Positions 2,553 to 25,651 of a stretch of 49,230 nucleotides of DNA are shown here, piece by piece (the stretch's first letter is position 1; every line of letters begins with the position of its first letter). Both the position numbers and the translations under genes were made by a program. This DNA is from Candidatus Anoxymicrobium japonicum (lineage in GTDB: Bacteria > Actinomycetota > Geothermincolia > Fen-727 > Anoxymicrobiaceae). The stretch lies in assembly GCA_002843005.1 (NCBI GenBank), contig PHEX01000001.1, forward strand, positions 1 to 49,230. The letters run 5' to 3'. The notes below the pieces were generated by a model, which saw only the letters and a list, made by a program, of their open reading frames with translations, searched no databases and had not been told where the DNA came from.

Positions 2553-2555
2553 TCC

Positions 2556-8978: not shown

Positions 8979-9210
8979 CAGGACAACCTCCGGAAGAATA
9001 GTAGTGGAATTATACCAACTTTTAGTTTTGTGGATCAGTCCCTTGATACCAAAAGGCATAGTGGGGTTGGCTCAAGGGGACAAGAATGCGAAAGTCCACC
9101 TCAAGGGCGGCGTGAATGCGCTATCTTTGAGAGGTGCGCTGAGCGCGCGAGGTCAGGAGAAAGTGCGAAAGTCAACGGATACGAAACGCGAATAATGATA
9201 TCCTTTTACC

Positions 9211-10077: not shown

Positions 10078-11318
10078 AGTGCCTTCACCTGATCCACAGG
10101 TACTGGCCCGCGCGCGGCGGCTCCGAGAAGTTTTTCATCGAGATCAGTGAGCGGCTGGTCGCGGACGGCAACGAGGTCACGGTCTTCACGACCGACGCCC
10201 TGGACATTCAGCACTACTGGCTCCCGAACAAGGAGCGCATCGATAATCCCCGCGAGACGCACAACGGGGTCGATATCCGCAGGTTTAACGTCAAGCGCCT
10301 CCCAAAGCATTCGCAGGCCCTGCGGGTGCTGGGAAAAATCCCCGGGCTCGCGCCCCGCAGCGTCTTCTCGTTCCCCTCGCCGCTGGCGCCGGGCATGCTC
10401 AAGAGTGTTTTTTCTTCCGAGAGGTTCGACATAGTCCACGCCACGGCGCTCCCGTACGATTCGATACTGTACTGCGCGTACCGCATCGCGAAGCGGCAGG
10501 AAATACCGCTTGTTTACTCGCCGTTTTTTCACCTTGGCGAGGAAGGCGTGAAAGACGTGCGCCGCTTCTACACGCGAGGGCATCAGATGCGGCTGATAAA
10601 GAGCGCCGACAGAGTTCTCGTTCAGACCGGCATCGAGCGCGATTTCCTGGCGGCGTCGGGGTTTCCCCATGAGCGGATGGTGCTTTTGGGCATGGGCATC
10701 AACCCGTCGGAGCTGGCGGGCGGCGACGGGACGCGCTTCAGGCGCAAACACGACATCGCCGGGCCGATCGTCTGCTATATCGGGCCCAGGACGTACGACA
10801 AAGGGACATTCCACCTTCTCGACGCGATGGAGAAGTTATGGGCCGGCGGCGACCCGTCCACGCTGGTTCTTGCCGGCATGGACATCGAGGATTTCAGGCG
10901 CTACCACGCGAAGTTGCCCGCGCGCCTGAAGTCGAAGTGCGTCCTGCTCGACTACGTCCCCGAGCAAGACAAACTCGACCTGCTGGACGCGTGTAACTTG
11001 CTGGCGCTTCCATCCAGGTCGGATTCGTTCGGCATCGTCTTTCTCGAGGCGTGGTTCTACGGCAAGCCGGTGGTCGGCGCGCTCGCCGGCGGCATACCCG
11101 GGCTGGTTCGCGACGGCATCGACGGCCTGCTCGTTTCGTTCGGTGACGTCAAGGAACTCGCGCTCTCGATACAGAAATTGCTATTGGATCAGGAGTACGC
11201 GCGCTCTCTGGGCGAGGCCGGCCGCCAGCGCACGCTCGCGGAGTTCACGTGGGACAAAAAGTACGCCGTGGTCAAGCAGTTGTACGAGGAGCTTACGGGC
11301 GCTGGCGTCGAATCGTAG
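10074..11318 (+). CDS. glycosyltransferase family 4 (GT-B)
   Basis: TTG start in a TTGA overlap with rfbD. N-terminus HRYWPARGGSEKF. E-x7-E region SDSFGIVFLEAWFYGKPVVG. Confidence 0.88.
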   Translation: MKCLHLIHRYWPARGGSEKFFIEISERLVADGNEVTVFTTDALDIQHYWLPNKERIDNPRETHNGVDIRRFNVKRLPKHSQALRVLGKIPGLAPRSVFSFPSPLAPGMLKSVFSSERFDIVHATALPYDSILYCAYRIAKRQEIPLVYSPFFHLGEEGVKDVRRFYTRGHQMRLIKSADRVLVQTGIERDFLAASGFPHERMVLLGMGINPSELAGGDGTRFRRKHDIAGPIVCYIGPRTYDKGTFHLLDAMEKLWAGGDPSTLVLAGMDIEDFRRYHAKLPARLKSKCVLLDYVPEQDKLDLLDACNLLALPSRSDSFGIVFLEAWFYGKPVVGALAGGIPGLVRDGIDGLLVSFGDVKELALSIQKLLLDQEYARSLGEAGRQRTLAEFTWDKKYAVVKQLYEELTGAGVES

Positions 11319-11360
11319 TCCGGCTTCACTTGAGGCGCGAGAGTTGTAGCACAAGCAGGT

Positions 11361-11843
11361 ATGGTTTTCATGCGGAACAACGGCATCGACGTAGAACAGG
11401 TGATGGAAGAGGTTAACCGCGCGATCGCTTCTCCGCACACACTGCTCGCCGATTTCTGGAAAGAGAAGCGTCCCACCGCGCCGTGCGTTTCCTTTTTGTA
11501 TCCGCCGCACTCCCGAACGTTGAGGGTCAACCTCGACATGGTCAGCAGGAACTGGGAGGTTGATCCCGAGTTCGAGGTGGGTTCGCGCAGACGCGTCGCC
11601 GGCCGGCTCGTGATAGCTTTCAAGAAGCTGACACGTGGCCTGCTGCGCTGGTACGTAAACCCCATCGTCCACCAGATCCGCAAGTTCAACATGTTGGTCA
11701 CGCGCACTTTATTTGACCTGGCTAACAACTTGGACGAGGTCTCAGGCAGGGTCATCGAACTGGAGAAGCAAGAAGTCGAGCGCAGGCTCAAAGAGCTCGA
11801 GCAAAAAATCTCGCGGCTCGAGGATGGGAGCGCCAGCTCATGA
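11361..11843 (+). CDS. coiled-coil protein, stand-alone copy of the methyltransferase N-terminal module
   Basis: 160 aa. NGIDVEQVMEEVNRAI and LLRWYVNPIVHQIRKFN match the N-domains of 22410 and 25652. It ends in the heptad-like VIELEKQEVERRLKELEQKISRLE. No methyltransferase domain follows. ATGA overlap with the next gene. Confidence 0.6.
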   Translation: MVFMRNNGIDVEQVMEEVNRAIASPHTLLADFWKEKRPTAPCVSFLYPPHSRTLRVNLDMVSRNWEVDPEFEVGSRRRVAGRLVIAFKKLTRGLLRWYVNPIVHQIRKFNMLVTRTLFDLANNLDEVSGRVIELEKQEVERRLKELEQKISRLEDGSASS

Positions 11844-13711
11844 CGCTTGAGCGCGTGAGGCCGGTCACTGTGATAGTGCTGACGTGGAACGGGCTCGAGG
11901 TCATCAAAAATTGCCTGCGAACCGTGTTCGAGAAAACGACCCACCCGGATTTCGAGGTTCTGGTGGTGGATAACGGCAGCACCGACGGCACAGTGGAGTA
12001 CGTCCGCGCGCTCGAGGGCGTCAGGCTCATCGAAAACTCGCGAAACCTGGGTTTCGTGGGCGGCAACAACGCGGGCATCGCGGCCACCACGGGCGATGTC
12101 GCGCTCCTCAACAACGACACGGAGATAATTCAGGGCGACTGGCTCGAGCGGATGCAGGCGCTCGCCTGTTCACAGGACGAGATAGGCGTTGTCGGGTGCC
12201 GGTTGATCAACGCTGAAGGCAATCTCGTTCATGCCGGAACTTACATGCCACGCCCGAGTTTCTGGGGGCAGGAGTATCCAGGCAATGAGCGGGATATCGG
12301 GCAGTACACTCGGGATCGCGAGGTGGAAGGTGTCATCGCGGCGTGTGTCTATATTAAGAGGCGCGTTATCGAGGACGTCGGCGCGCTGGACGCGGAGTAC
12401 TTCTCGTACTTCGAGGATACCGATTTCTGCTTGAAGGCGCAGGGCGCCGGCTTCAAGATCTACTGTTGCGGCGGCGTAACCGTCAAGCACCTCGAGAACG
12501 CTTCAACCGCCGTGAACCGCATGGATTTTTCGGGCACGTTCAGGCGCTCGCGCGAGGTGTTTCTGTCGAAGTGGAAAGAATTTTACGAAGAGAGCCGCGC
12601 CCACAGCCTTACCTGGCGCTCTTTCATATCGGGGCAGGGGACATATTCGAGGGCAAGCGCAAAACTTCTCTGGGCGCTCGATCGCGCCGGCGTGGATGTG
12701 AACCTGGCGTTTCTGGAGGGCGCGGAGAGCGCAGAGCTGAACGACTTCCGGCTCAACGACATGAAGAACAGGGGCGCCGACCGCAAACGCCCGCAAGTGC
12801 TTTTTGGGCCGCCCGACATGCTCGAGCGGGCCGATGGCTCGTACAACATTGGCTACGTCTTCACTCCTTACGACCGGTTTGACCATTCATGGGTGAAAGA
12901 GATGAACCGGATGGACGAGATCTGGGTCACAAGCGAGTTTCAAAGGAACGCGGCGCTCGCGTCGGGCGTGAAGAGAGAGATATTCGTGATGCCCTTCGGT
13001 GTTGATCCCGACTACTTCCACCCTCAGATCAAGTCGTTCGCGCTTCCGGAGCGGTTTGTGTTTCTGGCGCCGGTACAGTGGGGCGAATCATTCGCGTCGG
13101 AGACGTTGTTGCGCGCTTTCACCGACGAGTTTGCGCCCGACGAGAAAGTCGTACTGGTGATGAACGTGACGTCACCGGCTTTTGCTGAGAGCTCATGCTT
13201 GCCGCGAGGTTTGGCGGCTGTGCCCGCGGCTGCGGGCTGTAGCGCCGAGGTGGAAGAGGCTGTCGAAGCGATGGCTCTGCCGGCGGATCGGGCGCCGGTC
13301 GTGTTTGTGATCGACCACGAGATCGAGCCGTATCAGTCAGGTTGCCTGTATCGCTCCACCGACTGCGTGGTGCTCGCGGGCAGGGCGGCGGAGAGTGGCG
13401 AGGTCGCGGCCGACGCGCTCGCGTGCGGTGTGCCGATCGTTGCCGTTGACTGGGGCGCCAACTCGTCACTTATCGACGGCGTTCGCGCTATCGGGGTAGA
13501 GAGCGGAATGGTTCAGGCGCCAGAGGCTGGCCTTCGGTGGGCGGATCCCTCCTATGACAGTATGCGCGAGGCGCTGCGCAAGGCGGTCACGACGAGCGAC
13601 GCGGCGAAAAGGAGCGCGCTCGGGCACGGCGGGGAGTTGCGATCCAGGTTGTCGTGGGACGAACTGGCCGCGAAGATGACAAAGAGGCTGGATAGCATTG
13701 CCGGCGGATAG
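11840..13711 (+). CDS. bifunctional glycosyltransferase, N-terminal GT2 plus C-terminal GT4-like domain
   Basis: VTVIVLTWNG, VVDNGSTDGT, LLNNDTEI (DxD-type) and FEDTDFCLK define the GT2 half. DEIWVTSEF...VMPFGVDPDYFHP defines the GT-B half. Paralog of 23724-25520. Confidence 0.85.
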   Translation: MTLERVRPVTVIVLTWNGLEVIKNCLRTVFEKTTHPDFEVLVVDNGSTDGTVEYVRALEGVRLIENSRNLGFVGGNNAGIAATTGDVALLNNDTEIIQGDWLERMQALACSQDEIGVVGCRLINAEGNLVHAGTYMPRPSFWGQEYPGNERDIGQYTRDREVEGVIAACVYIKRRVIEDVGALDAEYFSYFEDTDFCLKAQGAGFKIYCCGGVTVKHLENASTAVNRMDFSGTFRRSREVFLSKWKEFYEESRAHSLTWRSFISGQGTYSRASAKLLWALDRAGVDVNLAFLEGAESAELNDFRLNDMKNRGADRKRPQVLFGPPDMLERADGSYNIGYVFTPYDRFDHSWVKEMNRMDEIWVTSEFQRNAALASGVKREIFVMPFGVDPDYFHPQIKSFALPERFVFLAPVQWGESFASETLLRAFTDEFAPDEKVVLVMNVTSPAFAESSCLPRGLAAVPAAAGCSAEVEEAVEAMALPADRAPVVFVIDHEIEPYQSGCLYRSTDCVVLAGRAAESGEVAADALACGVPIVAVDWGANSSLIDGVRAIGVESGMVQAPEAGLRWADPSYDSMREALRKAVTTSDAAKRSALGHGGELRSRLSWDELAAKMTKRLDSIAGG

Positions 13712-15365
13712 TCCCGCCCGCCTCAAGCGCCAGGTTCGCGAAAGGAAGCTCTCCGAGCGGGTGCTTAGACTCGCGCGCCAGCACCGGGCGGCGCTTGTGG
13801 TTATCGGGATAATGCTCGTGGCGTTTCTCCTCCGTTTGCACTATCTTTCGAAGCACACCGAGCATACGGCCGACAGCTATTATTTTCTCATCCTCGCGCG
13901 TTCGATCAGAGACACCTTCACGTACATGGTCAGGGGCGTCGCTCACACAAAGTACCTGCCGGGTTATCCCATAATGATATGGCTGGGAAGCTACATATTT
14001 GGTGATCTCGCGCGTTCGGCGAACATGATAGCGTTGCTGGGCGGTACGTTCACGGCGCTCGCGACCTACGGCATCGGCAGGGAGCTGTTCAACAAGTGGA
14101 CAGGAGTCGTTGCCGCGGTTGTAGTCGCGTTCCAGCCGACTTTCCTGAAGTGGACCGTCCTCTCCATGACCGAAGGGCTTTTCACTTTCCTGTTTGCCGC
14201 CGGCGTCTATCTGCTGCTTACCGGGTGCAAACGGGCGTCGCCGGCGAGGCGCGCGCTTGGCGCCGCGGCGGGCGGTCTGTGCTTCCTTGTGAGGTGGGAG
14301 GGGATGCTCTTTCTTCCTATCATGGGGCTTATCGCTCTCATCTACATCAAGGACTCGAAGTTTCGCTGGTGGGAGCCGGCGCTGGCGCTATTTGCCTTTG
14401 GCGCGCCGATGAGCGTATATGTCGCGCGAAACCTGATCGAGACGGGCAAAGTCACCTCGTACGTCGGCGAGTTCAAGGATTACAGCACTCAGGTTTCATA
14501 CCAGGTGCTCAAGCACAGGACGAAGGTCTACGCCTGGAACGGCATGTCGGACGCGTTGTTCTCCGCGCTGTTTTTCATCGGCGCGGCATACTGCCTCGCG
14601 CGCCGGAAGTGGAAAGGTTTCCTCGTCGCGGCAGGGTGGTTCGGCATTTTCGTGGGGTTTCACCTTTTCTGGTACTACGCTTACGAGAGGTTCATGGCGC
14701 CAGCGGTTCCGGCGGTCGGACTCATCATAGGATTCATGTTTGTGGATATGGCAACCCTGTCGTGGGCGTTTTTCTCAAAGGCCCGCGAACGCGAGAGCGC
14801 ATCGCCCGCCAGGTCAGCGGTACTGAGCGGCGCGCGGGTCGCCTGCCTTGTCGTTCTGGCGGCGTTGCTCGTGACCGTGGTCTCACACGGACTCGCGCGC
14901 GCGGATCTGGTCATCAAGCAAAACTACCTGGCGTTTGCCGACGATCACGGCGGCAGGGGGATGGAGCAGGCGGCCGGATGGCTTGACAGGAACGCGCGCG
15001 GGGAAACAGTCGCATGCGACGCGGGCCCGTATTTCCGGTGGCTGTACTATCCCGGCGACGTCCTCTACATGCGACCGGTTCCATGGGATCTTCCCGTGGA
15101 GCCCGCCGACGTTACCTGCCAGGACGCGGTGCGCCAGTTGAACGAGCGGGGCGTGAGATATATTGTCATAGGGCAGACAGAAAAGGGCGTGGACGACGAG
15201 CTCGGCGTCTTCGGGATTGTCGGCGCGTACAGGTCACAGATCAGGGAAGTAAAGCGCTGGGTCAATCATTATGACTACCCGTCGCCACACGACCTCACCA
15301 CTGTGATCTTTGAGATTGTCCTGAAGAGCCCCACTGTTGAAAGGAGTGACATTGAAGCCCGCTGA
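13698..15365 (+). CDS. GT-C membrane glycosyltransferase, ArnT/PMT_2-like
   Basis: 555 aa with ~12 hydrophobic segments, N-terminal loop HTADSYYFLILARSIRD, and a C-terminal soluble domain. The start is uncertain (TTG 13698). Confidence 0.72.
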   Translation: MPADSPARLKRQVRERKLSERVLRLARQHRAALVVIGIMLVAFLLRLHYLSKHTEHTADSYYFLILARSIRDTFTYMVRGVAHTKYLPGYPIMIWLGSYIFGDLARSANMIALLGGTFTALATYGIGRELFNKWTGVVAAVVVAFQPTFLKWTVLSMTEGLFTFLFAAGVYLLLTGCKRASPARRALGAAAGGLCFLVRWEGMLFLPIMGLIALIYIKDSKFRWWEPALALFAFGAPMSVYVARNLIETGKVTSYVGEFKDYSTQVSYQVLKHRTKVYAWNGMSDALFSALFFIGAAYCLARRKWKGFLVAAGWFGIFVGFHLFWYYAYERFMAPAVPAVGLIIGFMFVDMATLSWAFFSKARERESASPARSAVLSGARVACLVVLAALLVTVVSHGLARADLVIKQNYLAFADDHGGRGMEQAAGWLDRNARGETVACDAGPYFRWLYYPGDVLYMRPVPWDLPVEPADVTCQDAVRQLNERGVRYIVIGQTEKGVDDELGVFGIVGAYRSQIREVKRWVNHYDYPSPHDLTTVIFEIVLKSPTVERSDIEAR

Positions 15366-16893
15366 TGACAAGCTCAAAGATAGAATATTCTTTATCTTGT
15401 TGTTCGCGCTCATTGGCGGATACGTCGCGACGTTCCTTACGCTATCGCTGTTGCGCTATTCCAACTTCAGGGGCTCGGGGCTCGACACCGCGATCTACAA
15501 CCAGATCGTCTGGCTGTTTTCCAGGTTCAAGGCGCCCGTAAGCACGATAAGGGGCATGCACTTTTTCGGCGACCACATGTCGCCCATCCTCTTTCTTCTG
15601 TCGCCACTCAATTGGGGAGGAGGCAAGCCCACTGTGCTCCTCACTTTGCAGACGGTGGCTCTGGGCGCGGGAGCGATACCCCTCTACCTTCTCGCTGTGC
15701 GAAAACTCAAGAGCCGATGGGTGGGACTCGGCATCGCCGCGGCATACCTGTTCTACCCCGCGCTCCAGAACCAGAACCTTGCCGATTTCCATCCCGAAGT
15801 ACTGGGAACCGCCTTCCTTCTGTTCGCCTTCCTGGCGATAGACAAACGGCGGTTCGTGTGGTTCTACGCCCTGTGCATCCTCACGGTGATAACCAAGGAG
15901 GACATGGCTTTGCCTGTTCTGGTCCTCGGTGTCATCGTCTACTTACTGTACGACAAGCGCGCGGGAGTCATAGTCATGATCGGCTCGGCCGTGTACTTCC
16001 TGGCTTCCGTGCTGTTTCTGATACCCCACTTCGCTCCAGCGGGCTACCAGTACGCAGGCAGGCTCAATGCCTTCGGGACGACGACAGGAGAAGCAATCAA
16101 GAATTTCTTCCTGCGCCCGAGGCGAACCATCAGCATCCTCGCTACGCGCGAGAACCTGAGATACTTTTTCGACTTGTTGTTGCCTGTAGCTTTTCTCAGC
16201 CTTTTCGCCCCCGTCTTCCTGCTGCCAGCGTTCCCCGCTTTCCTTGTGAACATCATCAGCGACTTCCAGCCACAGCACACAATCACGTACCAGTACGCCG
16301 CGGCGATAATCCCGTTCGTCTTCATAGCCCTGGTGTTCGGCTTGAAGAGGATCTCCAAGTGGTCGGAGGGAGCATTCCGCTCGCAGTTCGTAATCGGTGG
16401 GATCGTCGTTGTCGTGCTGGCGTGCTCTCTCTCGGGCAACTTTTATTTTGGCCAGAGCCCGCTCGCGGCAGAGTTCCGTACAGCGAACTACGGCGCTGAT
16501 AAGCACATTACGGCGATCCGCGAGGGCCTGGAGCTGATACCCGCGGACGCCTCTGTCTCTGCGCAGACCTACATGCTGGCCCATCTGTCTAACAGGGAGA
16601 AGGTCTATCAGTTCCCCGAGCCGTTCAGGTATCTGGTAGACCAGAAGTACTACGATCAGCTCGGCACGATGTTGAACACGGTGCAGGATGACGCTAAAAA
16701 GTTGATCTTCCCCAGGACATACAGGGTGAAGGACAGGGGCAGGAGCATTGCCCCGCAGTACGTCATTGTCGACTCGGGCTCCACCTACAGGATCTCGAAA
16801 GAGATGTACGACGCGCTGATACGGCGCCTGCAGTCAGATGGTGGCTACAAGCAGATATACAACAAAGACGGCGTTCTAGTCCTGAAAATTTAA
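15337..16893 (+). CDS. DUF2079-family polytopic membrane protein (putative GT-C)
   Basis: LLRYSNFRGSGLDTAIYNQIVW and HFFGDHMSPILFLLSPL match my memory of the DUF2079 signature. Many TM segments. The start is uncertain (TTG 15337, GTG 15346 or TTG 15352). Confidence 0.72.
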   Translation: MKGVTLKPADDKLKDRIFFILLFALIGGYVATFLTLSLLRYSNFRGSGLDTAIYNQIVWLFSRFKAPVSTIRGMHFFGDHMSPILFLLSPLNWGGGKPTVLLTLQTVALGAGAIPLYLLAVRKLKSRWVGLGIAAAYLFYPALQNQNLADFHPEVLGTAFLLFAFLAIDKRRFVWFYALCILTVITKEDMALPVLVLGVIVYLLYDKRAGVIVMIGSAVYFLASVLFLIPHFAPAGYQYAGRLNAFGTTTGEAIKNFFLRPRRTISILATRENLRYFFDLLLPVAFLSLFAPVFLLPAFPAFLVNIISDFQPQHTITYQYAAAIIPFVFIALVFGLKRISKWSEGAFRSQFVIGGIVVVVLACSLSGNFYFGQSPLAAEFRTANYGADKHITAIREGLELIPADASVSAQTYMLAHLSNREKVYQFPEPFRYLVDQKYYDQLGTMLNTVQDDAKKLIFPRTYRVKDRGRSIAPQYVIVDSGSTYRISKEMYDALIRRLQSDGGYKQIYNKDGVLVLKI

Positions 16894-16977
16894 CTTTGGG
16901 AGCAGTCCCCCATGGCGTGCGGACGCGCCGCCACCATCCATGCCCCCTCGCCCGGGGTCACCGCGCGCGAAGCGCGT

Positions 16978-17060
16978 GGGGTGGGGAGAGGGTTGGGGCA
17001 GAACCCCCCTAGCCCCCCTTGTCAGGGGGGTACCTCGCCCCACACCTTAATCCTCCCGCC
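16978..17060 (+). repeat. G/C-tract palindromic intergenic element, copy A
   Basis: Box agagggttgggg (16987-16998), hairpin CCCCCC-ttgtca-GGGGGG (17013-17030), and box gccccacaccttaatcctccc (17037-17057). The same boxes occur in the same order at 36858-36910. Confidence 0.6.
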
Positions 17061-17111
17061 GTCTGAGGTGAAGGAGACCAGAAGAATGTTGGGGTGAGGG
17101 GTATAGTGGTA

Positions 17112-17137
17112 GCCTGAACGGGGGTTATTTTCGAAGC
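17112..17137 (+). repeat. conserved intergenic motif ctgaNc-ggggttattttcg, copy A
   Basis: The 13-nt core ggggttattttcg (17121-17133) is identical to 27982-27994, and the flanking ctga.c is also shared. Both copies lie upstream of TTG-started genes. Confidence 0.4.
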
Positions 17138-17185
17138 AGGTCTTTTTTTAAAGTTTGCCTGACCTGACACCAAAGTTAAGGGGGG

Positions 17186-19555
17186 TTGTTGAAAGAGAAG
17201 TGGGGCAAAAAAGATTGGTTGGTGTTGCTTGGGCTTCTTGCACTGGCGACGCTCGCGTGGTCGCGGGTGCTGTTCATGCGGCAGTGGTCGTTTGGGATCG
17301 AGACTGATTTCATCCGGCAGTTTTATCCGGCCCGTGTTTACGCGACCGGATCACTCGCGTCCGGCGTGTTCCCTCTCTGGAATCCGCATGTGCTCTCGGG
17401 GCACCCGTTTTTCGCTTCATATCAGACCGCTATGCTTTATCCATTGAACCTCTTGATGGTAGGCTCGTACGCCGCCGCCGGCGCGACGTTCCCGCTCAAG
17501 GCCCTGTGCGTGTTCGTGGTTTTCCATTTTTTCCTTGCCGGCGCCTTTACTTATATCCTTTCGCGCGATCTCGTGCTCGGCAGGGCCGGCTCAACAGTTG
17601 CCGCTGTCACTTTCATGTTCTCGGGATACCTGGCGGCGCACGCGGGGCACATAAACCAGGTTTCCGCCGCGGCGTGGATGCCGCTGATATTTTTTCTGTT
17701 CAACCGCGCGCTGGAACGCCGGCGCTTCTCATGGGCCGTTGGCGCGGGCGTCGCGCTGGCGGCGGCGATCCTGGCCGGACACGTGCAACCGGTCTTTTAT
17801 CTGTGCGCGCTCCTTGCTGGCCTGACGCTTTTTCGGGCGTGGCAACATTACCGCTGTGAGACTGAAGGAACCGGGATCGCATTCGGGATCGCGTCGCTCG
17901 CCATCACGGTTGCGGTCGGCGCGGGCCTGGCGGCGGCGCAGTTGTTCCCGATGTACGAGCTCATCGGGCTATCGACACGGAGTCGGATGCCTTTCGACAT
18001 CGCTCGAACCTCGAGCCTTCCCAGGTGGCAGACGCTGAACCTTGTGTTCCCAAAATTCTTTGGCGCCAACGTGGCCAACTACACCGGCGGATGGTTTATA
18101 TGGGAGACGTACGGCTACTGCGGAATAGTGGGGGGGGCGCTTGGGATTGTGGCGCTTTTGCGCCGCCAGCGCGCATTTGTTCTGTTCCTGATGGCGGCGC
18201 TTGTTGGATCGCTTATCCTCGCGCTTGGGCCGGCCGGGTACATTTATACGTTGCTTTTCAAGGCGGGGTTCTTTGTCAACCGTTTTCGCAACCCGGCGCG
18301 CATCCTTGTGGTGTTCGCGTTTACTTCCGCTCTGCTTGCTGGACTGGGGGCCGACCATATTGTCCGGACATTCGCCGAGGAGGGGCGCGCGCGCTACGCC
18401 GCCGCTACGCGCCTTGTCGGTTTTCTCGCGGCGCTGTTGCTCATCCTGACTGGCGCTCTTTCTGTGTTTCTGCTTTTGAGAGGTGGCAAGCCCGTCCAGA
18501 ACGGCATCGCCTTCAAGAGCATGATAATGCCGGTGGCGCTGCTCCTGTTGTTTCTGGGATTGCTCACGCTGGCGCGACGCGTGAAGCTGAACGCCAGGAC
18601 GCTGGCGATAGGCATACTTCTTCTGGTGGCGGTGGATCTGATAGCGCAAAACGTCCCGTGGGTGATGGTGAAAGTCAAACCTGGCGATTTTTACGGCGAC
18701 GCCGCGGCGTCGCGTTACGTGGCCTCACAACATGGCGCCTTTCGCGTCGAGACGGACGCGCATACCATGTATAAGTCGCTGGACAACGGCCCGTTGTACG
18801 GCCTGGATAAAGCCACGGGAGATGATTCGCTTGTCCTTGCCGACTACAACAACTACCGTGAGATCATTTTGCCGCAGGTTTCTCCCGGAGTGCAGATAGG
18901 GCTGTTCTATGATGGCGCTTTGAACTCCCCGATGCTGGATCCGCTGAATGACGCGTATTTTCTAACGCGCCAGCCGATCAACCCCGTGTTGCTGCGACAG
19001 GGCAAGCTCAAGCTTGACCGCCGCATGGGGGGGGTATACGTGTATCGAAACACCACCATCCTGCCGCGCGCCTGGATGAGCGACGCCCGCGCGTACAGCG
19101 ACAACCAGAGGATTTACGACGAGCTTGTCCGTACGCGCGGGAAAGACATTCGTAGCACGGCCCTGGTCGTGATGCCTGATGTGGCCGCTTCCCGCGGACA
19201 GGGCGCGCCCGTGCCGGCGGTCAAAAGGCCCGTGGTTCTACGCGAGCGGTCGGCGCACAGGTTGCTGCTCGAGTGCGATCCGATTAGCCGTGGTCTCCTC
19301 GTCCTCTCAGAGATGTACTACCCCGGCTGGCAGGCGTACATCGACGGCAGGAAGGCCGAGACGTTCAAGACGGACCTCATGCTTCGTGGAGTGATGCTTC
19401 CCGGAGGCCAGAAGGAGGTCGAGTTCCGCTTCGAGCCGCGAAGCCTTCGAATGGGAATCGCGGTCTCTCTCACTTTCGCCGCGCTTTTGTTGCTATACTT
19501 TGGAATCCTTGTTTTCGCATCGCTACGCCAACCGGCGCGAGAGGAAGAAGTTTGA
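17186..19555 (+). CDS. YfhO-family GT-C membrane glycosyltransferase
   Basis: 789 aa with many TM segments. The first loop is GIETDFIRQFYPARVY. The C-terminal YYPGWQAYIDGRKAE...GGQKEVEFRFEP is typical of YfhO. TTG start after AAGGGGGG. Confidence 0.75.
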   Translation: MLKEKWGKKDWLVLLGLLALATLAWSRVLFMRQWSFGIETDFIRQFYPARVYATGSLASGVFPLWNPHVLSGHPFFASYQTAMLYPLNLLMVGSYAAAGATFPLKALCVFVVFHFFLAGAFTYILSRDLVLGRAGSTVAAVTFMFSGYLAAHAGHINQVSAAAWMPLIFFLFNRALERRRFSWAVGAGVALAAAILAGHVQPVFYLCALLAGLTLFRAWQHYRCETEGTGIAFGIASLAITVAVGAGLAAAQLFPMYELIGLSTRSRMPFDIARTSSLPRWQTLNLVFPKFFGANVANYTGGWFIWETYGYCGIVGGALGIVALLRRQRAFVLFLMAALVGSLILALGPAGYIYTLLFKAGFFVNRFRNPARILVVFAFTSALLAGLGADHIVRTFAEEGRARYAAATRLVGFLAALLLILTGALSVFLLLRGGKPVQNGIAFKSMIMPVALLLLFLGLLTLARRVKLNARTLAIGILLLVAVDLIAQNVPWVMVKVKPGDFYGDAAASRYVASQHGAFRVETDAHTMYKSLDNGPLYGLDKATGDDSLVLADYNNYREIILPQVSPGVQIGLFYDGALNSPMLDPLNDAYFLTRQPINPVLLRQGKLKLDRRMGGVYVYRNTTILPRAWMSDARAYSDNQRIYDELVRTRGKDIRSTALVVMPDVAASRGQGAPVPAVKRPVVLRERSAHRLLLECDPISRGLLVLSEMYYPGWQAYIDGRKAETFKTDLMLRGVMLPGGQKEVEFRFEPRSLRMGIAVSLTFAALLLLYFGILVFASLRQPAREEEV

Positions 19556-20262
19556 AGCTTTCGGTGATCATGCCGACGCATAACGAAGAGGCGACAATCG
19601 AAGAAGTGATTCGCCGTGTCCGCGCGGTCGATCTCGGGGACGTGGCGCTCGAGGTCATTGTGGTGGACGACGCGTCCACGGATTCCACGCCTTCGAGGCT
19701 GGCCGCCTTCGAGGGGAAAGAGAACGTGACGGTTTTATCCCACCAGATAAACCGCGGCAAAGGCGCCGCTATCCGCACAGGGCTCGAGTCGGTCACCGGA
19801 GACATGGTGATCATCCAGGACGCCGATCTCGAGTACGATCCCGGCGACTACCCGCGTCTTATCGAGCCTGTAATGACCGGGCGCGCCGACGTCGTTTACG
19901 GCAGCCGCTTCAAGGGCAGTTGTGAGAACATGGCTTTCGCGAACCTTGTGGCAAACAAGATACTGGCGTGGACGGCCACGTTGCTGTTCGGGAAGCGTAT
20001 TACAGATGAGGCAACCTGCTATAAGGTTTTTAAGACGGACGTGTTGCGCTCGTTCGATCTTCAGTGCGAGCGCTTCGAGTTCTGTCCCGAGGTGACCGCC
20101 AGGGCGCTTCGGGGAGGGTACCGCCTGCTCGAAGTTCCGATTTCCTACCGCGCCCGGACGGTCGAGGCCGGCAAGAAGATTCGCGCGTCCGATGGCATCC
20201 AGGCGGTGTGGACGCTGGTGCGCTTCAGGTTCAAGCGCAAGCGCATACGGAAGAGCGCCTGA
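19552..20262 (+). CDS. GT2 polyprenyl-phosphate sugar synthase-like (DPM1/Ppm1-type, no TM tail)
   Basis: MKLSVIMPTHNEE, VIVVDDASTDST, NRGKGAAIRTG and IIQDADLEYDP. TTGA overlap with the yfhO-like gene. Confidence 0.8.
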   Translation: MKLSVIMPTHNEEATIEEVIRRVRAVDLGDVALEVIVVDDASTDSTPSRLAAFEGKENVTVLSHQINRGKGAAIRTGLESVTGDMVIIQDADLEYDPGDYPRLIEPVMTGRADVVYGSRFKGSCENMAFANLVANKILAWTATLLFGKRITDEATCYKVFKTDVLRSFDLQCERFEFCPEVTARALRGGYRLLEVPISYRARTVEAGKKIRASDGIQAVWTLVRFRFKRKRIRKSA

Positions 20263-20324
20263 TGATGTTCTGTTAGAATTAGTGGTCAACCCGAACGATA
20301 TTCAGACCAGGATTCATTTATCAG

Positions 20325-21173
20325 ATGATGATAGAAAGACTCAAAGATCTATGGTGCCACCGGGAGCTCCTCTTCAACATGACCAGGAAGGAGCTCAAGG
20401 TCAAATACAAGCGCTCAGTGCTGGGGTTCGTGTGGTCGTTCATGACTCCGCTCATCATGCTGGCCGTCTTCAGCCTCGTCTTTTCAATTCTGGCCAAAAC
20501 CCCCATGAACTGGTTTGTGATCTACCTGATGTCAGGCCTCTTCCCGTGGCTGTTTTTCGTGAACTCGCTCATGCAGAGCGTTGGCTCAGTCGTCGGCAAC
20601 CCGGGTCTCGTGAAGAAGGTTTACTTTCCCCGCGAGGTTCTGCCAATCGCCTCGGTAGGCGCGAACATATTCCACTTCATCCTGCAGATGCTGATCCTGC
20701 TGCTGTTTCTCGTCATTATCGGCTGGCACTTTTCAATATACATCTTGTACCTGCCGCTGGTGATGTTGCTCGAGATCGTCTTAACGATGGGCCTGGCCCT
20801 CTGCATCTCCTCGGCGAACGTTTACTTGAGGGACGTCCAGCACTTCACGGAAGTCGCCACAATGGCGTGGTTCTGGCTGTGCCCTATCGTTTACACGATT
20901 GGCGCAGTGATGGGCCAGTTGGGAAGTTTTTTCAAGCTGTACCTGTGCAACCCAATGACCAACATCGTGCAACTTTACCAGTTTATAATCTATAATCCGC
21001 GCTTCTACGCCCCAAAATCTTATATAGAAGCGCGTCCACCCAGAGGGCAGCCGGCCGTGATCTACCTGTCTTTCTGGGGCATATTCGCCACGATTGTCCT
21101 GTCGGTACTGTTGCTCGTCTTCGGCTACTACTATTTCATCATGAAGGAGCGCGGGTTTGCCGAGCAGATATAA
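20325..21173 (+). CDS. wzm: ABC-2 type polysaccharide export permease
   Basis: ELLFNMTRKELKVKYKRSVLGFVWSFMTPL signature, six hydrophobic segments, 282 aa. Confidence 0.88.
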   Translation: MMIERLKDLWCHRELLFNMTRKELKVKYKRSVLGFVWSFMTPLIMLAVFSLVFSILAKTPMNWFVIYLMSGLFPWLFFVNSLMQSVGSVVGNPGLVKKVYFPREVLPIASVGANIFHFILQMLILLLFLVIIGWHFSIYILYLPLVMLLEIVLTMGLALCISSANVYLRDVQHFTEVATMAWFWLCPIVYTIGAVMGQLGSFFKLYLCNPMTNIVQLYQFIIYNPRFYAPKSYIEARPPRGQPAVIYLSFWGIFATIVLSVLLLVFGYYYFIMKERGFAEQI

Positions 21174-21187
21174 CACGGTGATGTGAT

Positions 21188-22423
21188 ATGGGATCGAATT
21201 ACGCGGTAGAAATAAACGGCGTCTCCAAGATGTTTAAGCTCCATCACGAGAATGTGCGGAGTTTAAAGGAAAAAGCGCTCTTTTTCAACAAGCGAGGTTA
21301 CGAGAAGTTCTGGGCGCTCAGGGACATCGACATCAAGGTCGAAGGGGGCGAGACCCTGGGCATCATAGGGGCAAACGGATCAGGCAAATCGACGTTGCTC
21401 AAGCTGATGACGAAGATACTCTACCCGACGAGCGGCAACGTCGTCACCAGCGGCAGCATCGCCGCGCTCCTCGAGCTGGGCGCGGGCTTCCAGCCCGACC
21501 TCACGGGGCGCGAGAACGTATATTTGAACGCCTCTATTCTCGGTTTCTCAAAGAAAGAGGTTGACAGGAGGTTTGACGATATCGTCGCGTTCGCGGAGAT
21601 GGAACGGTTCATCGACAACCACGTGAGAAACTACTCGAGTGGCATGTATATCAGGCTCGGGTTCGCCGTCGCGATAAATGTCGACCCGGACATTCTGATT
21701 ATTGACGAGGTGCTGGCGGTTGGCGACGAAGCCTTTCAGCGCAAGTGCCTCGAGCGTATCGGAGAGATACAGGACGCCGGCAAGACGATCGTCTTTGTCA
21801 CGCACAACGTTGAAATCACCAGGGAGATTTGTTCGAAGGTCATCATGCTGGACGAAGGCGTCATCGTTAAGGAAGGCAACCCTCGCGAGGTCGTCAACTA
21901 TTACCATCAGCAGATGGAGAGCGACGACGCGGAGCGCTCCGAGCGCGGCAACCGCAAGATAGAAGTGCTTGGCGTCTCTCTTCTCGACGAGAAGGATCAG
22001 CCGGCCAACGATTTTTATACCGGGCAGGACATGAAGATACGGGTGGCGTATCGCGCCAACGAGCCTGTCGAAGACCCGGTGTTCGGCTTCTCGATAGACG
22101 ATTACCGTGGTTTCACGGCATACGGCACCAACACGAGGCTAAAAAATCTCAAGTGCGGCACGATCACGGGGGAAGGTTTCGTCCAGTTCGACCTGAAGTC
22201 GATGCCGATGCTGGAAGGCCGCTATCTCGTGAGCATAGCTATTCATAACAGGGACGAGAGCACGATCTATCACTGGCTCGATAAGCATTATCCGTTCAGC
22301 ATGCACTCGGACATCAGTGATGTGGGGCTGCTCTACATACCGTCGAGCGTCACTATCGTCCCAAACCCCGCTCATCGCCCGTCGCGGGGCCCGTCAGTGG
22401 AGGCTACTCATGAGCCCGGTTGA
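21188..22423 (+). CDS. wzt: polysaccharide ABC exporter ATPase with a C-terminal Wzt_C-like domain
   Basis: Walker A GANGSGKST, signature YSSGMYIRLGFA, Walker B ILIIDEVLAVGD. There is an extra ~155-aa beta-rich C-terminal domain (IEVLGVSLLDE...VSIAIHN...). Confidence 0.9.
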   Translation: MGSNYAVEINGVSKMFKLHHENVRSLKEKALFFNKRGYEKFWALRDIDIKVEGGETLGIIGANGSGKSTLLKLMTKILYPTSGNVVTSGSIAALLELGAGFQPDLTGRENVYLNASILGFSKKEVDRRFDDIVAFAEMERFIDNHVRNYSSGMYIRLGFAVAINVDPDILIIDEVLAVGDEAFQRKCLERIGEIQDAGKTIVFVTHNVEITREICSKVIMLDEGVIVKEGNPREVVNYYHQQMESDDAERSERGNRKIEVLGVSLLDEKDQPANDFYTGQDMKIRVAYRANEPVEDPVFGFSIDDYRGFTAYGTNTRLKNLKCGTITGEGFVQFDLKSMPMLEGRYLVSIAIHNRDESTIYHWLDKHYPFSMHSDISDVGLLYIPSSVTIVPNPAHRPSRGPSVEATHEPG

Positions 22424-23708
22424 GATTGACATCGAGGATCTCCTCACTGACGTGGCGAACGCGCTCAACGAGCGAGAGACAGGCAGGCGCCAGTCGTACC
22501 GCTCCGAGGTTCGCGAAGTAGAAGACGTCATCTATCTGATGCCTGGCGCGTGGCAGAGCATCACCAACAGCCTCACGGCGCTGGATCAGAGCCTCGCCCC
22601 GATCTCCTCGGCGTTCACTGCCACGGATACGTCGCCGCATGAGCGTGGCGGGATCGCGCACGGTGTAAAAGGGATAGTGAAACGCGCGATTCAGAAGTCC
22701 GTGTACTGGTATGTGAACCCGGTAGTCGCGCAGCTTCACAGCATGCACTCGTCCACGGTGCGCGCGATGCACGAAGTTGCCGATCAGGTGAAGAGCATGA
22801 ACGACCGCCTGGAGATTCTCGAGAAGGACAACCTGACGACGCGTGTGCGGGCCCTGGAGGGAGAGAGGTTCGACGAGAGGATAGGGCGGCTCGAGCGCGC
22901 GTGGAGGCAGAAGGACGCGGATATCCGTGAAGAATTTGAGCCAGCGGCGGGCCCGGCGCCCACACTCATAGAGAGTGATCGCGGCGCGGGAAAAGGCCGC
23001 GCGCCAGAGTGTGTGGATCCGCTGTTCCACTTTGACTACTACTGGTTCGAGAGCATCCACAGGGGCGACAGGGCGCTGATCAAGCGTCGCCAGCAGCCTT
23101 ACATTGGTTACTTCGAGGGATGCTCAAATGTGTTGGATATCGGGTGCGGGCGCGGGGAGTTCCTCGAGCTCATGACCGAGAAGGGCATCGGCGGCTACGG
23201 CATTGATATCGAGGGCGACTCGGTGCAATCATGCGCAGATCTGGGGCTCGACGCCAGGAAAGCCGAAGCACGTGAGCATCTTGCCGCGCTGGGAGAGAAC
23301 AGCCTGGATGGCGTATTCATCTCGCAGGTCGCCGAGCACATGACGCCGGGCGAGCTCATCGAGATGGTCGGACTTGCCTGCTCGAGGATAGAGCCTGGTG
23401 GATTCATTGTGGTCGAGACGCCGAATCCGCAGTGCCTGCTCATATTCGCGAGTTTCTTCTACGCGGATCTCTCGCACGTGCAGCCGATACACCCCGAGAC
23501 AATGAGATTCCTCCTGCTATCAGCGGGCTTCAAGGACGTGGAGATCAAGTTTGTCAATCCCGTGCCTCGCAATCAGAGACTTGGTAAAGTTGTGATACAG
23601 GACATAGCGCCGGGCGAGATATGGGTAGATGAGCTGAACGCGAACATGGACAAGCTCAACTCCGTGCTGTTCGGCGATATGGATTACGCGGCGATAGCAA
23701 AGAAATAG
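22410..23708 (+). CDS. coiled-coil N-domain plus class I SAM methyltransferase (chain-terminator-like)
   Basis: ATG 22410 follows GTGGAGG and overlaps the wzt end. SVYWYVNPVVAQLHSMH box, heptad-like LEILEKDNLTTRVRALEGERFDERIGRLE, motif I VLDIGCGRGEFLE. Confidence 0.85.
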   Translation: MSPVEIDIEDLLTDVANALNERETGRRQSYRSEVREVEDVIYLMPGAWQSITNSLTALDQSLAPISSAFTATDTSPHERGGIAHGVKGIVKRAIQKSVYWYVNPVVAQLHSMHSSTVRAMHEVADQVKSMNDRLEILEKDNLTTRVRALEGERFDERIGRLERAWRQKDADIREEFEPAAGPAPTLIESDRGAGKGRAPECVDPLFHFDYYWFESIHRGDRALIKRRQQPYIGYFEGCSNVLDIGCGRGEFLELMTEKGIGGYGIDIEGDSVQSCADLGLDARKAEAREHLAALGENSLDGVFISQVAEHMTPGELIEMVGLACSRIEPGGFIVVETPNPQCLLIFASFFYADLSHVQPIHPETMRFLLLSAGFKDVEIKFVNPVPRNQRLGKVVIQDIAPGEIWVDELNANMDKLNSVLFGDMDYAAIAKK

Positions 23709-23723
23709 TCACAGAAGGAAGAT

Positions 23724-25520
23724 ATGGACGAGCAACCGACTATCGTCATACATGATTGGGACGACACCGACGGGGCGTCAAAACTGGCCCGCTCTCTCTC
23801 GTCCGGCCCGCTGGCGGTCACCGCAAGGAAGATTGCCGTTGTTGCTCATGCGGAGCACAGAGCGGCGCGCGAGCTGCTTGCGTCGATGGGTTTTGAAGTT
23901 ATACAGGCTTCGGTTGGGGCCACGTCGGGTGAGCGAAAGAACATGGGGATCAAATCGGCGCGCGGCGACGTTGCGCTTCTGTCATCGAAAGCCCAGCTCA
24001 TAGATAACGAGTGGCTTTCAAAGCTCTCCGAGGAGGCGGGATCCTCCCTCGCGGGAGTGGTGGGGTGCAAGGTGGTGGACGATAGAGGGATGATCCTCAA
24101 CGCGGGCTTTCACGTGCTGTCTCCCGAATGCGAGCTTTTCCCGCTTGGCGGTGGCAAGAAAGATATAAACCAGTACTACTACGCGCGGGAGGTGGAAGGT
24201 GTCGATTCCACCTGCATGTACATCCGGCGCGAGGCGCTCGATCGCGTTGGCGGCTTCGACGCGGATCTCGACGGGCACTATGACGATCTTGATTTCTGCC
24301 TGAACGTCAAGTCCGAAGGGTTTCCCGTTATGTGCGCCGGTCGCGTGAAGGTAGCCGTGCACGGCGGCGCGGACACGGCGCGCCAGGTCACTGATGCCGC
24401 GCACGAGGCGTACCGTGAACGACGGGCGGCGTATTACGCCGACAGGTACGATACCCGTGTCATGTGGCACTCGTGGATCAACGCGCCCACGGGGTACGCG
24501 GTTTCTTCGCAGTACCTGGTGCTCGCTCTCGAGCAATTGAACGTGGATGTGCGCTACGGTTTTGTGTACGGCGTCGAGGAGGCGCCGAACGATGACAGGC
24601 GCATCATGGAGGTGCGCCGCAAGACGAAAGACCTGGATGTAACTCAGGTTGTGTACGGGCAGGGCGACGTTTTCTTCAAGAACAGTGGCGCTTACAGGGT
24701 CGGCTACTCAATGCTGGAGGTCACCGGCATCCCCGCGGACTGGGTCGAACAGGCGAACGCGCTGGACGAGGTGTGGGTTCCGTCTCAATTCAACAAAGAA
24801 ACGTTTGCCGCGAGCGGTGTCACAAAGCCTTTGTATGTGATGCCACTGGGCGTAGACACAAACTACTTTCATCCATTCATCGATTCGCGCGAGATCGAGG
24901 GCCGCTTCGTGTTCCTGTCCGTGTTCGAATGGGGCGAGCGAAAAGCCCCTGAGGCTCTGCTGCAAGCGTACAACCAGGAGTTTTCGTCCAGCGATGACGT
25001 GCTCTTGCTCCTGAAGGTCAACAACACCGACCCTGCCGTCAATATCGAACGTCATATCGAGGCTATGCGCTTGAGGGCCGAACGGGCGCCCATGGCGATT
25101 GTGCTCAACCAGAACATTTCCAGCTACCAGATGGGCTCGCTCTACTGCTCCAGTGATTGCTTTGTCCTGCCCACGAGGGGGGAAGGTTGGGGCATGCCCA
25201 CGCTGGAGGCGATGGCGTGCGGGTTGCCGACTATCAGTACCAGTTGGAGCGCGCAGACTGAGTTTTTCAACGATGATGTCGGTTATCCCATCAACATTAA
25301 AGGGCTCATTCCAGCGGTCGCCAAGTGCCCTTACTACGACGGCTTCGAGTGGGCGGATCCCGACGTTGACCACCTGGCTTCGTTGATGCGGCGCGTGTAC
25401 GATAACCGCAAGGAGGCGCGGGCAAAAGGGTTGCGCGCTTCTATCCAGGCGCGCGAGAAGTGGACATGGCTTGACGCCGCCAGGCGCATAAAGGCGCGGC
25501 TCTGTGAAATCTCCGGCTGA
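23724..25520 (+). CDS. paralog of 11840-13711 with a degenerate GT2-like N-domain plus a GT4-like C-domain
   Basis: It aligns along its length with 11840-13711 (GDVALL..., DLDFCLN, DEVWVPSQF...VMPLGVDTNYFHP, GEGWGMPTLEAMACGLPTIST). VVDNGSTDGT is replaced by VVAHAEHRAA and NNDTE by SSKAQ. Confidence 0.8.
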   Translation: MDEQPTIVIHDWDDTDGASKLARSLSSGPLAVTARKIAVVAHAEHRAARELLASMGFEVIQASVGATSGERKNMGIKSARGDVALLSSKAQLIDNEWLSKLSEEAGSSLAGVVGCKVVDDRGMILNAGFHVLSPECELFPLGGGKKDINQYYYAREVEGVDSTCMYIRREALDRVGGFDADLDGHYDDLDFCLNVKSEGFPVMCAGRVKVAVHGGADTARQVTDAAHEAYRERRAAYYADRYDTRVMWHSWINAPTGYAVSSQYLVLALEQLNVDVRYGFVYGVEEAPNDDRRIMEVRRKTKDLDVTQVVYGQGDVFFKNSGAYRVGYSMLEVTGIPADWVEQANALDEVWVPSQFNKETFAASGVTKPLYVMPLGVDTNYFHPFIDSREIEGRFVFLSVFEWGERKAPEALLQAYNQEFSSSDDVLLLLKVNNTDPAVNIERHIEAMRLRAERAPMAIVLNQNISSYQMGSLYCSSDCFVLPTRGEGWGMPTLEAMACGLPTISTSWSAQTEFFNDDVGYPINIKGLIPAVAKCPYYDGFEWADPDVDHLASLMRRVYDNRKEARAKGLRASIQAREKWTWLDAARRIKARLCEISG

Positions 25521-25528
25521 GAGGAAAA

Positions 25529-25537
25529 TGCTATAAT
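25529..25537 (+). promoter_or_regulatory. candidate extended -10 promoter element TGcTATAAT
   Basis: A perfect TATAAT (25532-25537) is preceded by TGc. It lies 9 nt after the stop of 23724-25520 and just upstream of a structured palindromic leader. No clear -35. Confidence 0.35.
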
Positions 25538-25544
25538 TTCTCTT

Positions 25545-25630
25545 GGGGTCAGGCAACGTCTACCGCTTTAGCGGTAGACGGAAAGGTAGACGGTGCCTGA
25601 CCCCTGGCGTCTACCGCTTTAGCGGTAGAC
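25545..25630 (+). repeat. REP-like palindromic element, copy 2 (compound)
   Basis: GGGGTCAGGCA (25545-25555) is the reverse complement of TGCCTGACCCC (25594-25604). The 22-nt hairpin gtctaccgctttagcggtagac occurs twice (25558-25579, 25609-25630). ggtagacgg occurs three times. Confidence 0.65.
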
Positions 25631-25651
25631 GGTGGGAAAGGTGGTGGATAG

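Follow-up and report, generated by a model that had tools for sequence, protein, structure and literature searches.

Paralogous glycosyltransferases with complementary domain decay, and a helical partner module, in an ABC-transporter glycan cluster of Candidatus Anoxymicrobium japonicum

In Escherichia coli O9a/O8 and Klebsiella O3/O5, glycans of the ATP-binding cassette (ABC) transporter pathway are handled by WbdD and WbdA, a coiled-coil terminator and a multidomain polymerase (PMC3482155, PMC11231755). WbdA is built of mannosyl glycosyltransferase (GT) modules, and in the known systems the coiled-coil protein is a scaffold at the membrane that carries the terminator distally (PMC11231755). 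Two eukaryotic enzymes offer a different kind of precedent: in the heparan sulfate co-polymerase EXT1-EXT2 the glucuronic acid (GlcA) transferase domain of EXT2 is inactive (bioRxiv 10.1101/2022.06.19.496623), and in the chondroitin synthase CHSY-CHPF both CHPF domains are inactive yet stabilising (PMC13389171). Here we describe a 49 230-nucleotide (nt) stretch of Candidatus Anoxymicrobium japonicum (assembly GCA_002843005.1, contig PHEX01000001.1, positions 1 to 49 230; 'the window'), in which a cell-surface glycan cluster encodes two related GTs, A (11840-13711, + strand) and B (23724-25520, + strand), together with a family of helical proteins, some of them fused to methyltransferases.

We propose, with a probability of roughly 0.6, that A and B complement each other as the two halves of a co-polymerase that serves a Wzm/Wzt export pathway and is held on membrane-tethered helical adaptors.

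Complementary decay of two catalytic domains

A (623 aa) and B (598 aa) align by BLASTP at 32% identity over 555 aa (E 5e-103), spanning A 76-622 and B 72-598; the first ~75 residues can be aligned only by MAFFT because the N-terminus of B is degenerate. A first-pass annotation, made from the sequence of the window alone, had taken A and B as the second genes of a duplicated two-gene module (11361-11843 with A, 22410-23708 with B), and the four open reading frames (ORFs), the peptides it quoted and the homology of the second genes are all confirmed. In A, the GT2 domain (GT-A type; aa 1-250, 11840-12589, +) is intact, as had been annotated: DNGSTD, NND, EDTD and HLEN are present, and PF00535 is matched with 88 bits against a cut-off of 23.3 (E 8.9e-25). 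The GT4 domain of A (GT-B type; aa 255-623, 12602-13708, +) is degenerate, which the annotation had overlooked, and its matches to PF00534 and PF13692 (23.8 and 17.5 bits) stay under the cut-off. B has the opposite arrangement. Its GT2-like domain (aa 1-240, 23724-24443, +) is degenerate and without a PF00535 or PF13641 match in Pfam, and the loss of acidic motifs reported for it earlier (now VVAHAEHR and LSSK) holds. The GT4 domain of B (aa 245-598, 24456-25517, +) is intact, with MLE, ERK, KVNNTD and EX7E (25182-25208) in place and matches to PF13692 (48 bits) and PF00534 (46 bits).

The replacements can be read against the consensus of homologues that have both domains (the outgroup, defined below). 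For GT2, VVDNGSxDGT appears as VVDNGSTDGT in A and VVAHAEHRAA in B, LLNND as LLNNDTEI and LLSSKAQL, FEDTDYC as FEDTDFC and YDDLDFC, and HxENxST as KHLENAST and, gapped, AVHGG; in B, AHAEHR stands in place of DNGSxD and SSK (23982-23990) in place of NND, and HxEN is gone. For GT4, MLE appears as VFTPYDR in A and MLEVTG in B, WGERKAPE as WGESFASE and WGERKAPE, LLKVxNxD as VMNVTSPA and LLKVNNTD, and RGEGWGMPxLEAMACGLP as RAAESGEVAADALACGVP and RGEGWGMPTLEAMACGLP. The losses of A are MLE to FTP, ERK to ESF, GEGWGMPxLE to AAESGEVAADA (13388-13414) and the whole of KxxNxD; the replaced positions include the first Glu, the GEGWG loop, the Lys of ERK, K442, N445 and D447.

Database searches returned three groups of homologues. 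A-orthologues (50-74% identity) have GT2 matches and weak or absent GT1 matches in precomputed Pfam assignments, B-orthologues (60-77% identity) have GT1 matches and, apart from a few, lack a GT2 match, and the outgroup (40-50% identity to A or B) has both domains and comes from Chloroflexota, Paenibacillus, other Bacillota, Acidobacteriota, Verrucomicrobiota and further groups. We aligned 59 clade A, 55 clade B and 106 outgroup sequences and scored the columns that are at least 90% conserved in the outgroup. Out of 76 such GT2 columns clade A keeps 70 and clade B keeps 22; out of 117 GT4 columns clade A keeps 50 and clade B keeps 111. The window proteins follow their clades: A keeps 63/117 GT4 columns, and B keeps 29/76 GT2 and 114/117 GT4 columns. 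Per-sequence retention in clade A is 0.89-0.97 for GT2 and 0.42-0.62 for GT4, and in clade B 0.29-0.45 for GT2 and 0.91-0.97 for GT4, so that the ranges of the two clades do not overlap; all 106 outgroup homologues, from other phyla, retain at least 0.89 in each domain. Residues D44, D49 and N91-N92-D93 of the A GT2 domain are present in 100% of clade A. By motifs and conserved columns, the reciprocal decay is within both GTs: GT2 appears lost in B and GT4 in A. The subfunctionalisation suggested by the first-pass annotation stands in part: the pattern fits and the pairs are paralogous, but the reciprocal loss is of GT2 against GT4, and not, as it had been put, of a methyltransferase against GT2.

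Evolutionary distances follow the same division. For GT2, they are 0.28 within A and 0.88 within B, and 0.72 (A) and 1.94 (B) to the outgroup; for GT4, they are 0.50 within A and 0.18 within B, and 1.32 (A) and 0.64 (B) to the outgroup. The degenerate domains are conserved in length. In B, omega (the ratio of non-synonymous to synonymous substitution rates, from the least saturated pairs) is ~0.4-0.5 for the decayed GT2 part and ~0.1-0.16 for the GT4 part, so selection on the former is relaxed yet still purifying; because synonymous divergence (dS) is close to saturation, we used only the ratio between domains. By these measures the GT4 domain of B is the most strongly constrained of the four domains in A and B. 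One sequence in the collection is less decayed: a B-like enzyme of the uncultured actinobacterium DRR093004_bin.3 (L017 1494-3329), with an upstream 161-aa partner-family ORF, has an intact GT4 and a partly diverged GT2 (retention 0.67; DNGxSD, DND and EDTD kept, LTWNG, NLGFxxGNN and HxEN lost), and may be an intermediate state.

AlphaFold gives a confident model of B (predicted local distance difference test, pLDDT, 94; predicted template modelling score, pTM, 0.92), in which the degenerate N-terminal part is a folded domain. Foldseek matches are confined to the C-terminal part of B and are to retaining GT4 enzymes (E 1e-16 to 1e-11): the structures sharing its fold include Paramecium bursaria chlorella virus (PBCV) NY2A 3oy2, GlgM 6tvp, 7qsg, MshA and BshA. 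The 7qsg enzyme is the methylmannose-polysaccharide mannosyltransferase of M. hassiacum. The C-terminal domain of B keeps the EX7E region. These solved enzymes differ from B in being single-domain, at 10-19% sequence identity, and none of the solved structures covers a GT-A plus GT-B fusion. Nearer relatives are the intact GT2-GT4 enzymes of Chloroflexota, Paenibacillus, Acidobacteriota and others, annotated only as 'glycosyltransferase': they are homologous to A and B over the full length, and their genes often accompany wzm/wzt and the gene of a small partner-family protein, but they keep both motif sets (106/106), where A and B keep one set each.

A helical partner module

The gene just before A encodes a 160-aa protein (11361-11843, +; 157 aa in the public call, which begins at 11370), and its stop codon overlaps the A start (ATGA). 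The protein has a cationic amphipathic helix (aa 77-94), WYVNP (aa 97-101) and then a heptad-like helix that runs to aa ~155, and AlphaFold draws residues 75-155, at low confidence, as a single continuous helix. It has no catalytic domain: Pfam gives no match, NCBIfam one sub-threshold coiled-coil-like match and Foldseek no match against the PDB, in line with the annotated absence of a methyltransferase. B is preceded by a 432-aa protein (22410-23708, +) that combines the same module (WYVNP at aa 100-104, heptad-like segment 106-150) with a class I S-adenosylmethionine (SAM) methyltransferase domain (~230-432; Pfam E 1e-11; PDB 3dli, E 3e-55), whose DIGCGRGE motif is intact; the annotation had likewise called this methyltransferase intact. 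The region it reported as shared by these two first genes is real: ~70 aa around WYVNP align at 29% identity (72 aa, E 1e-8), and an orthologue of the 160-aa protein matches 22410 at E 7e-12.

A hidden Markov model (HMM) of the shared region finds four family members in the window (11361, 22410, 25652 and 8022-9059), not two; the latter pair had been overlooked. The third, a 425-aa module-methyltransferase protein (25652-26929, +), is paralogous to 22410-23708, with which it shares 30% identity over 351 aa (E 2.5e-46), and is, by BLAST, the window protein closest to the 160-aa protein (E 3e-9, 114 aa), above 22410. The fourth (8022-9059, - strand; 345 aa, a weaker HMM match), whose gene overlaps the start of a GT4 gene (6806-8038, -), joins the module to a methyltransferase-like domain, and profile-profile comparison (hhalign) relates most of its length to the methyltransferase-fused family (97.6% probability, E 3.7e-12). 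It is likely to be a pseudo-methyltransferase, because SAM motif I (DIGCGRGE) is replaced by IVGPCPSA, a replacement kept in its orthologues (L001, L003); with this motif gone, it is likely the third decayed catalytic domain in the cluster.

Three elements make up the module: a cationic amphipathic helix of 18 residues (hydrophobic moment 0.66-0.76, net charge +5 or +6 per 18 residues), an invariant W-Y-x-x-P (WYxNP motif) and a heptad-like helix that is short, about 45-80 residues; no Pfam model covers it. A profile search of 1.84 billion representative proteins gave 1511 matching clusters at E<=1e-3. Among the best 147 of these 1511, ~64 have a methyltransferase domain, two have GT1 and the remainder have no Pfam domain. 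The module is found standalone, N-terminal to methyltransferases and C-terminal to single-domain GT4 or GT2 enzymes. Many members of 220-310 aa (e.g. P0326, P0329, P0331 and P0345) match the profile in two separate stretches, which suggests tandem-duplicated modules in one protein.

The HMM matches in 44 of 86 loci, in many of them directly adjoining the GT2-GT4 gene. A partner is directly upstream of an intact GT2-GT4 gene in loci of Chloroflexia, Anaerolineae and Ardenticatenaceae, often overlapping the GT start, and directly downstream in Chloroflexus. The usual neighbour of the intact enzymes in Chloroflexota is the short form lacking a methyltransferase; module-methyltransferase fusions are upstream of intact GT2-GT4 genes in metagenome-assembled genomes (MAGs) labelled as Eubacterium, Bacillota and unclassified bacterial. 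Among 226 GT homologues none has the module fused to a GT2-GT4 enzyme. Fusions to single-domain enzymes lie near GT2-GT4 genes in Chloroflexota, with GT4 at L018 2900-4711, L019 2750-4837, L026 2797-4692 and L029 3-1235, and with GT2 at L038 479-1846 and L048 1189-2733. Module-GT fusions of this kind are evidence of the Rosetta-stone type for a physical partnership between the module and glycosyltransferases.

These contexts bear on the earlier claim that module 1 has lost its methyltransferase, which we do not uphold. A local loss cannot be deduced, since short forms adjoin intact GT2-GT4 genes and about half of the best 147 representatives are without a catalytic domain; the short form is instead an old and common state and not a local truncation, because the orthologues of the 160-aa protein are all short (79/79 clusters at 140-178 aa, 'hypothetical proteins'), standalone members are widespread and the adjacency to intact GT2-GT4 genes recurs. 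A methyltransferase frame cut off after 11843 by a sequencing frameshift is ruled out: the stop codon overlaps the A start (ATGA), tblastn with both methyltransferase domains over 11000-14500 gives no match at E<=10, and all orthologues are short.

WbdD-WbdA and the present system have in common a multidomain polymerase gene next to one for a helical protein with a SAM methyltransferase, export by Wzm/Wzt in which Wzt bears a carbohydrate-binding domain, and an amphipathic helix beside the helical region, as expected for a membrane-proximal recruitment site. A catalytic domain of the WbdD terminator type on a helical protein is found in 22410-23708 and 25652-26929 and is absent from 11361-11843. 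The order, however, is inverted relative to WbdD (amphipathic helix and heptad-like helix N-terminal, methyltransferase last), the helices are much shorter, and the module also occurs without a catalytic domain or fused to GTs; the polymerase differs from WbdA in being a GT2-GT4 enzyme split into two half-dead paralogues. No WbdD chain is among the PDB sequence matches of the methyltransferase proteins at E<=0.01, their top match, 3dli, being deposited merely as 'methyltransferase', and by these matches neither upstream protein appears to be a WbdD family member.

The first-pass annotation had suggested one elongating and one capping complex. Spelled out, this model gives elongation to the short protein with A, and capping to the methyltransferase-fused protein with B, which would add and methylate the terminal residue and so set chain length and the signal read by Wzt. 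Several observations fit: B is flanked by two methyltransferase-fused partners in the window and in loci L007-L015, the Wzt protein has a Wzt_C domain, the B GT4 could add a single terminal sugar, and coiled-coil terminators are the rule in this pathway (PMC11231755). The pathway setting of the proposed ruler holds, that is, an ABC-transporter pathway with known coiled-coil methyltransferase terminators. The assignment of the two roles is weakened because A is half-dead, the B GT4 is the most constrained domain and the partner type varies. A has just one intact catalytic domain where the outgroup enzymes have two; a polymer made by A only would be a different, single-linkage one, unless another GT substitutes. 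B is not a mere capping scaffold: no other part of A or B is as conserved as its GT4 (within-clade distance 0.18, omega ~0.1). Nor does the partner type indicate elongation or capping, because intact bifunctional enzymes in other phyla pair with short or fused partners alike, and in one related genome (GCA_020723485.1) B is directly preceded by a short partner; the shortness of the heptad-like helices also counts against this model. We consider this division of labour unlikely.

Cluster setting and age of the pair

The cell-surface glycan cluster of the window depends on an ABC transporter (Wzm/Wzt with Wzt_C) and belongs to an uncultured lineage of Actinomycetota. The cluster is single and co-directional (+ strand, 9211 to ~32500), and its genes are, in order, rmlD, a GT4, the 160-aa protein, A, PMT_2, DUF2079, YfhO, a DPM1-like GT2, Wzm, Wzt with Wzt_C, the methyltransferase-fused 22410, B and the second methyltransferase-fused protein, with two further methyltransferases and two GT4s at the 3' end. 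The Wzm permease (20325-21173, +; PF01061) and the Wzt ATPase (21188-22423, +; PF00005 and a C-terminal PF14524 Wzt_C carbohydrate-binding domain, E 1.7e-29) are the export system that defines the pathway. The rmlD gene (9211-10077, +) encodes a dTDP-4-dehydrorhamnose reductase, and the best NCBIfam match of A, under its cut-off, is a rhamnosyltransferase subfamily; both hint at a rhamnose-containing polymer. Only one protein of the cluster has the WbdD-like order of catalytic domain and then coiled coil: this methyltransferase is encoded at 26926-27909 (+), has a ~100-aa heptad-rich C-terminal segment (aa 229-327) and lacks the WYxNP module, and its best PDB match is 3cc8, a putative methyltransferase.

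The genes between module 1 and wzm/wzt (13698-20262, +), for GT-C-type membrane proteins (PMT_2, DUF2079 and YfhO) and the DPM1-like GT2, are at the same place in two related loci (L001 and L003) and look like a polyprenyl-phosphate-sugar route for glycan modification outside the cytoplasm. Between B and 25652-26929, at 25521-25651, there are two exact copies of a 22-nt palindrome, GTCTACCGCTTTAGCGGTAGAC (25558-25579 and 25609-25630), the first nested in a longer inverted repeat (GGGGTCAGGCA...TGCCTGACCCC). The RNA fold of this element is -66.2 kcal/mol (z = -6.5), and none of such palindromes is expected by chance; an Rfam search gave only sub-threshold matches, and none of the 88 related loci searched contains the element.

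The arrangement of A and B is older than the radiation of the clade, because A and B orthologues are on one contig in GCA_020723485.1, the cluster order is conserved in L003, whose A has only 51% identity, and nine further orthologue pairs have records whose longest contig is identical in size. The A protein is also encoded in GCA_017973855.1, and its close homologues are labelled Candidatus Geothermincolia, Anoxymicrobiaceae or Actinomycetota. A recent duplication at the DNA level is ruled out: blastn between the two modules gives only short matches (<=56 nt, E>=0.02), and with no significant DNA-level similarity the relationship must be old. In GCA_020723485.1 (L089; DYIU01000003.1), positions 1844-4029, between the gene for a methyltransferase-fused protein and that for the B orthologue, encode an extra 586-aa GT and a short partner of 141 aa (HMM E 1.4e-23). 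The initial 372 aa of this GT match the B GT4 at 47% identity, and it has no GT2 remnant. The extra GT and the short partner imply that GT/partner modules have been reshuffled within the clade.

In neighbour-joining (NJ) trees A and B are each monophyletic in 42-50 of 50 bootstraps. A and B are safely called paralogous, and a bifunctional ancestral state, complementary losses and joint retention, as read from the alignments, together make the pair a putative case of duplication-degeneration-complementation.

A putative split co-polymerase

We propose that A and B derive from a widespread enzyme whose N-terminal domain is GT2 and whose C-terminal domain is GT4. In a co-polymerase that elsewhere is one polypeptide, A would provide GT-A activity and B GT-B activity. 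The two probably work together as a heteromer whose dead domains would persist as interface, structural or glycan-binding scaffolds; no natural fusion of A with B came to light. The amphipathic helix would anchor the partner proteins to the membrane from its cytoplasmic side, and the heptad-like helix would dock or oligomerise them, with each other or with the GT2-GT4 enzyme, so that GTs and methyltransferases may share one assembly beside Wzm/Wzt. The module would then be a functional equivalent, at the N-terminus, of the membrane-proximal end of WbdD: in partners bearing a methyltransferase, the helix would present at its far end an activity for methylation or termination, and the 160-aa protein would be an adaptor without a terminator. 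The Wzt_C domain in E. coli O8/O9a binds the methylated chain end, and the methyltransferases here could make the modification that Wzt_C reads. The likeness to EXT1-EXT2 and CHSY-CHPF is in paralogous two-domain GTs with some catalytic domains inactive but retained; the retained domains there stabilise a heterodimer that makes an alternating co-polymer, and by analogy a heterodimer may form here. They differ in being eukaryotic Golgi enzymes of unrelated families (GT47/GT64 and GT31/GT7), with inactivation that is one-sided and not cleanly reciprocal.

Observations on several levels favour reading A and B as two halves of one enzyme: fused modules, conserved partner-GT adjacency, co-retention of A and B and complementary motif decay. 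Others weigh against it. Besides A and B the cluster encodes at least five GT4 enzymes, three standalone GT2 enzymes and several methyltransferases, and with such content A and B need not act on one and the same acceptor. The apparent death of domains in A and B is judged from motif loss, the confidence of the B N-terminal model may be carried by intact outgroup sequences in its alignment, and the 160-aa protein is poorly modelled (pLDDT 62). Nor is B always paired with a methyltransferase-fused partner, as GCA_020723485.1 shows. Finally, a duplication of one two-gene module in this lineage is not recovered in the NJ trees, where A and B are sisters in 0/50 bootstraps on the full alignment, 0/50 on GT4 and 24/50 on GT2, a test made weak by the long branches of one fast-evolving domain per protein; A and B could have separate origins.

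This last result would also suit a view of A and B as unrelated monofunctional enzymes, co-opted for different steps or glycans, their dead domains being leftovers with only a folding role. A could, for example, feed the GT-C membrane enzymes (13698-19555), whose genes and the DPM1-like GT2 gene follow it, and B, lying after wzm/wzt, could build the exported chain; the many other GTs of the cluster fit as well. Such independence sits poorly with a decay that is exactly complementary, with two genes in one co-directional cluster that has a single transporter and an order conserved in related genomes, and with a neighbour from the same partner family retained by each; we regard it as quite improbable.

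The co-polymerase proposal can be sharpened, tentatively. In this stronger form, which is possible though we would not lean on it, A and B would make up an obligate heteromeric co-polymerase in which exactly one GT-A and one GT-B site are live, as a bacterial analogue of EXT1-EXT2. Hetero-oligomers of a hitherto undescribed adaptor family (amphipathic helix, WYxNP and coiled coil) would keep the complex at the membrane; the same family would bear methyltransferases as a WbdD-like ruler of inverted topology and be widespread in Chloroflexota, Actinomycetota and Bacillota.

Functional roles of A, B and their partners beyond sequence conservation are offered here as proposals. We found no precedent for reciprocal GT-domain inactivation in bacteria in the literature searched. 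A and B represent a clean, clade-wide natural case of a two-domain glycosyltransferase divided into half-dead paralogues, and the pair yields testable predictions on the assembly of alternating co-polymers in bacteria. It also illustrates how domain-level labels such as 'GT2 family' or 'group 1 glycosyltransferase' conceal pseudo-domains. The partner module defines a sizeable unannotated group that accompanies GTs and methyltransferases in the ABC-transporter glycan loci of phyla that have been little studied and, by analogy, may be those phyla's equivalent of the WbdD scaffold.

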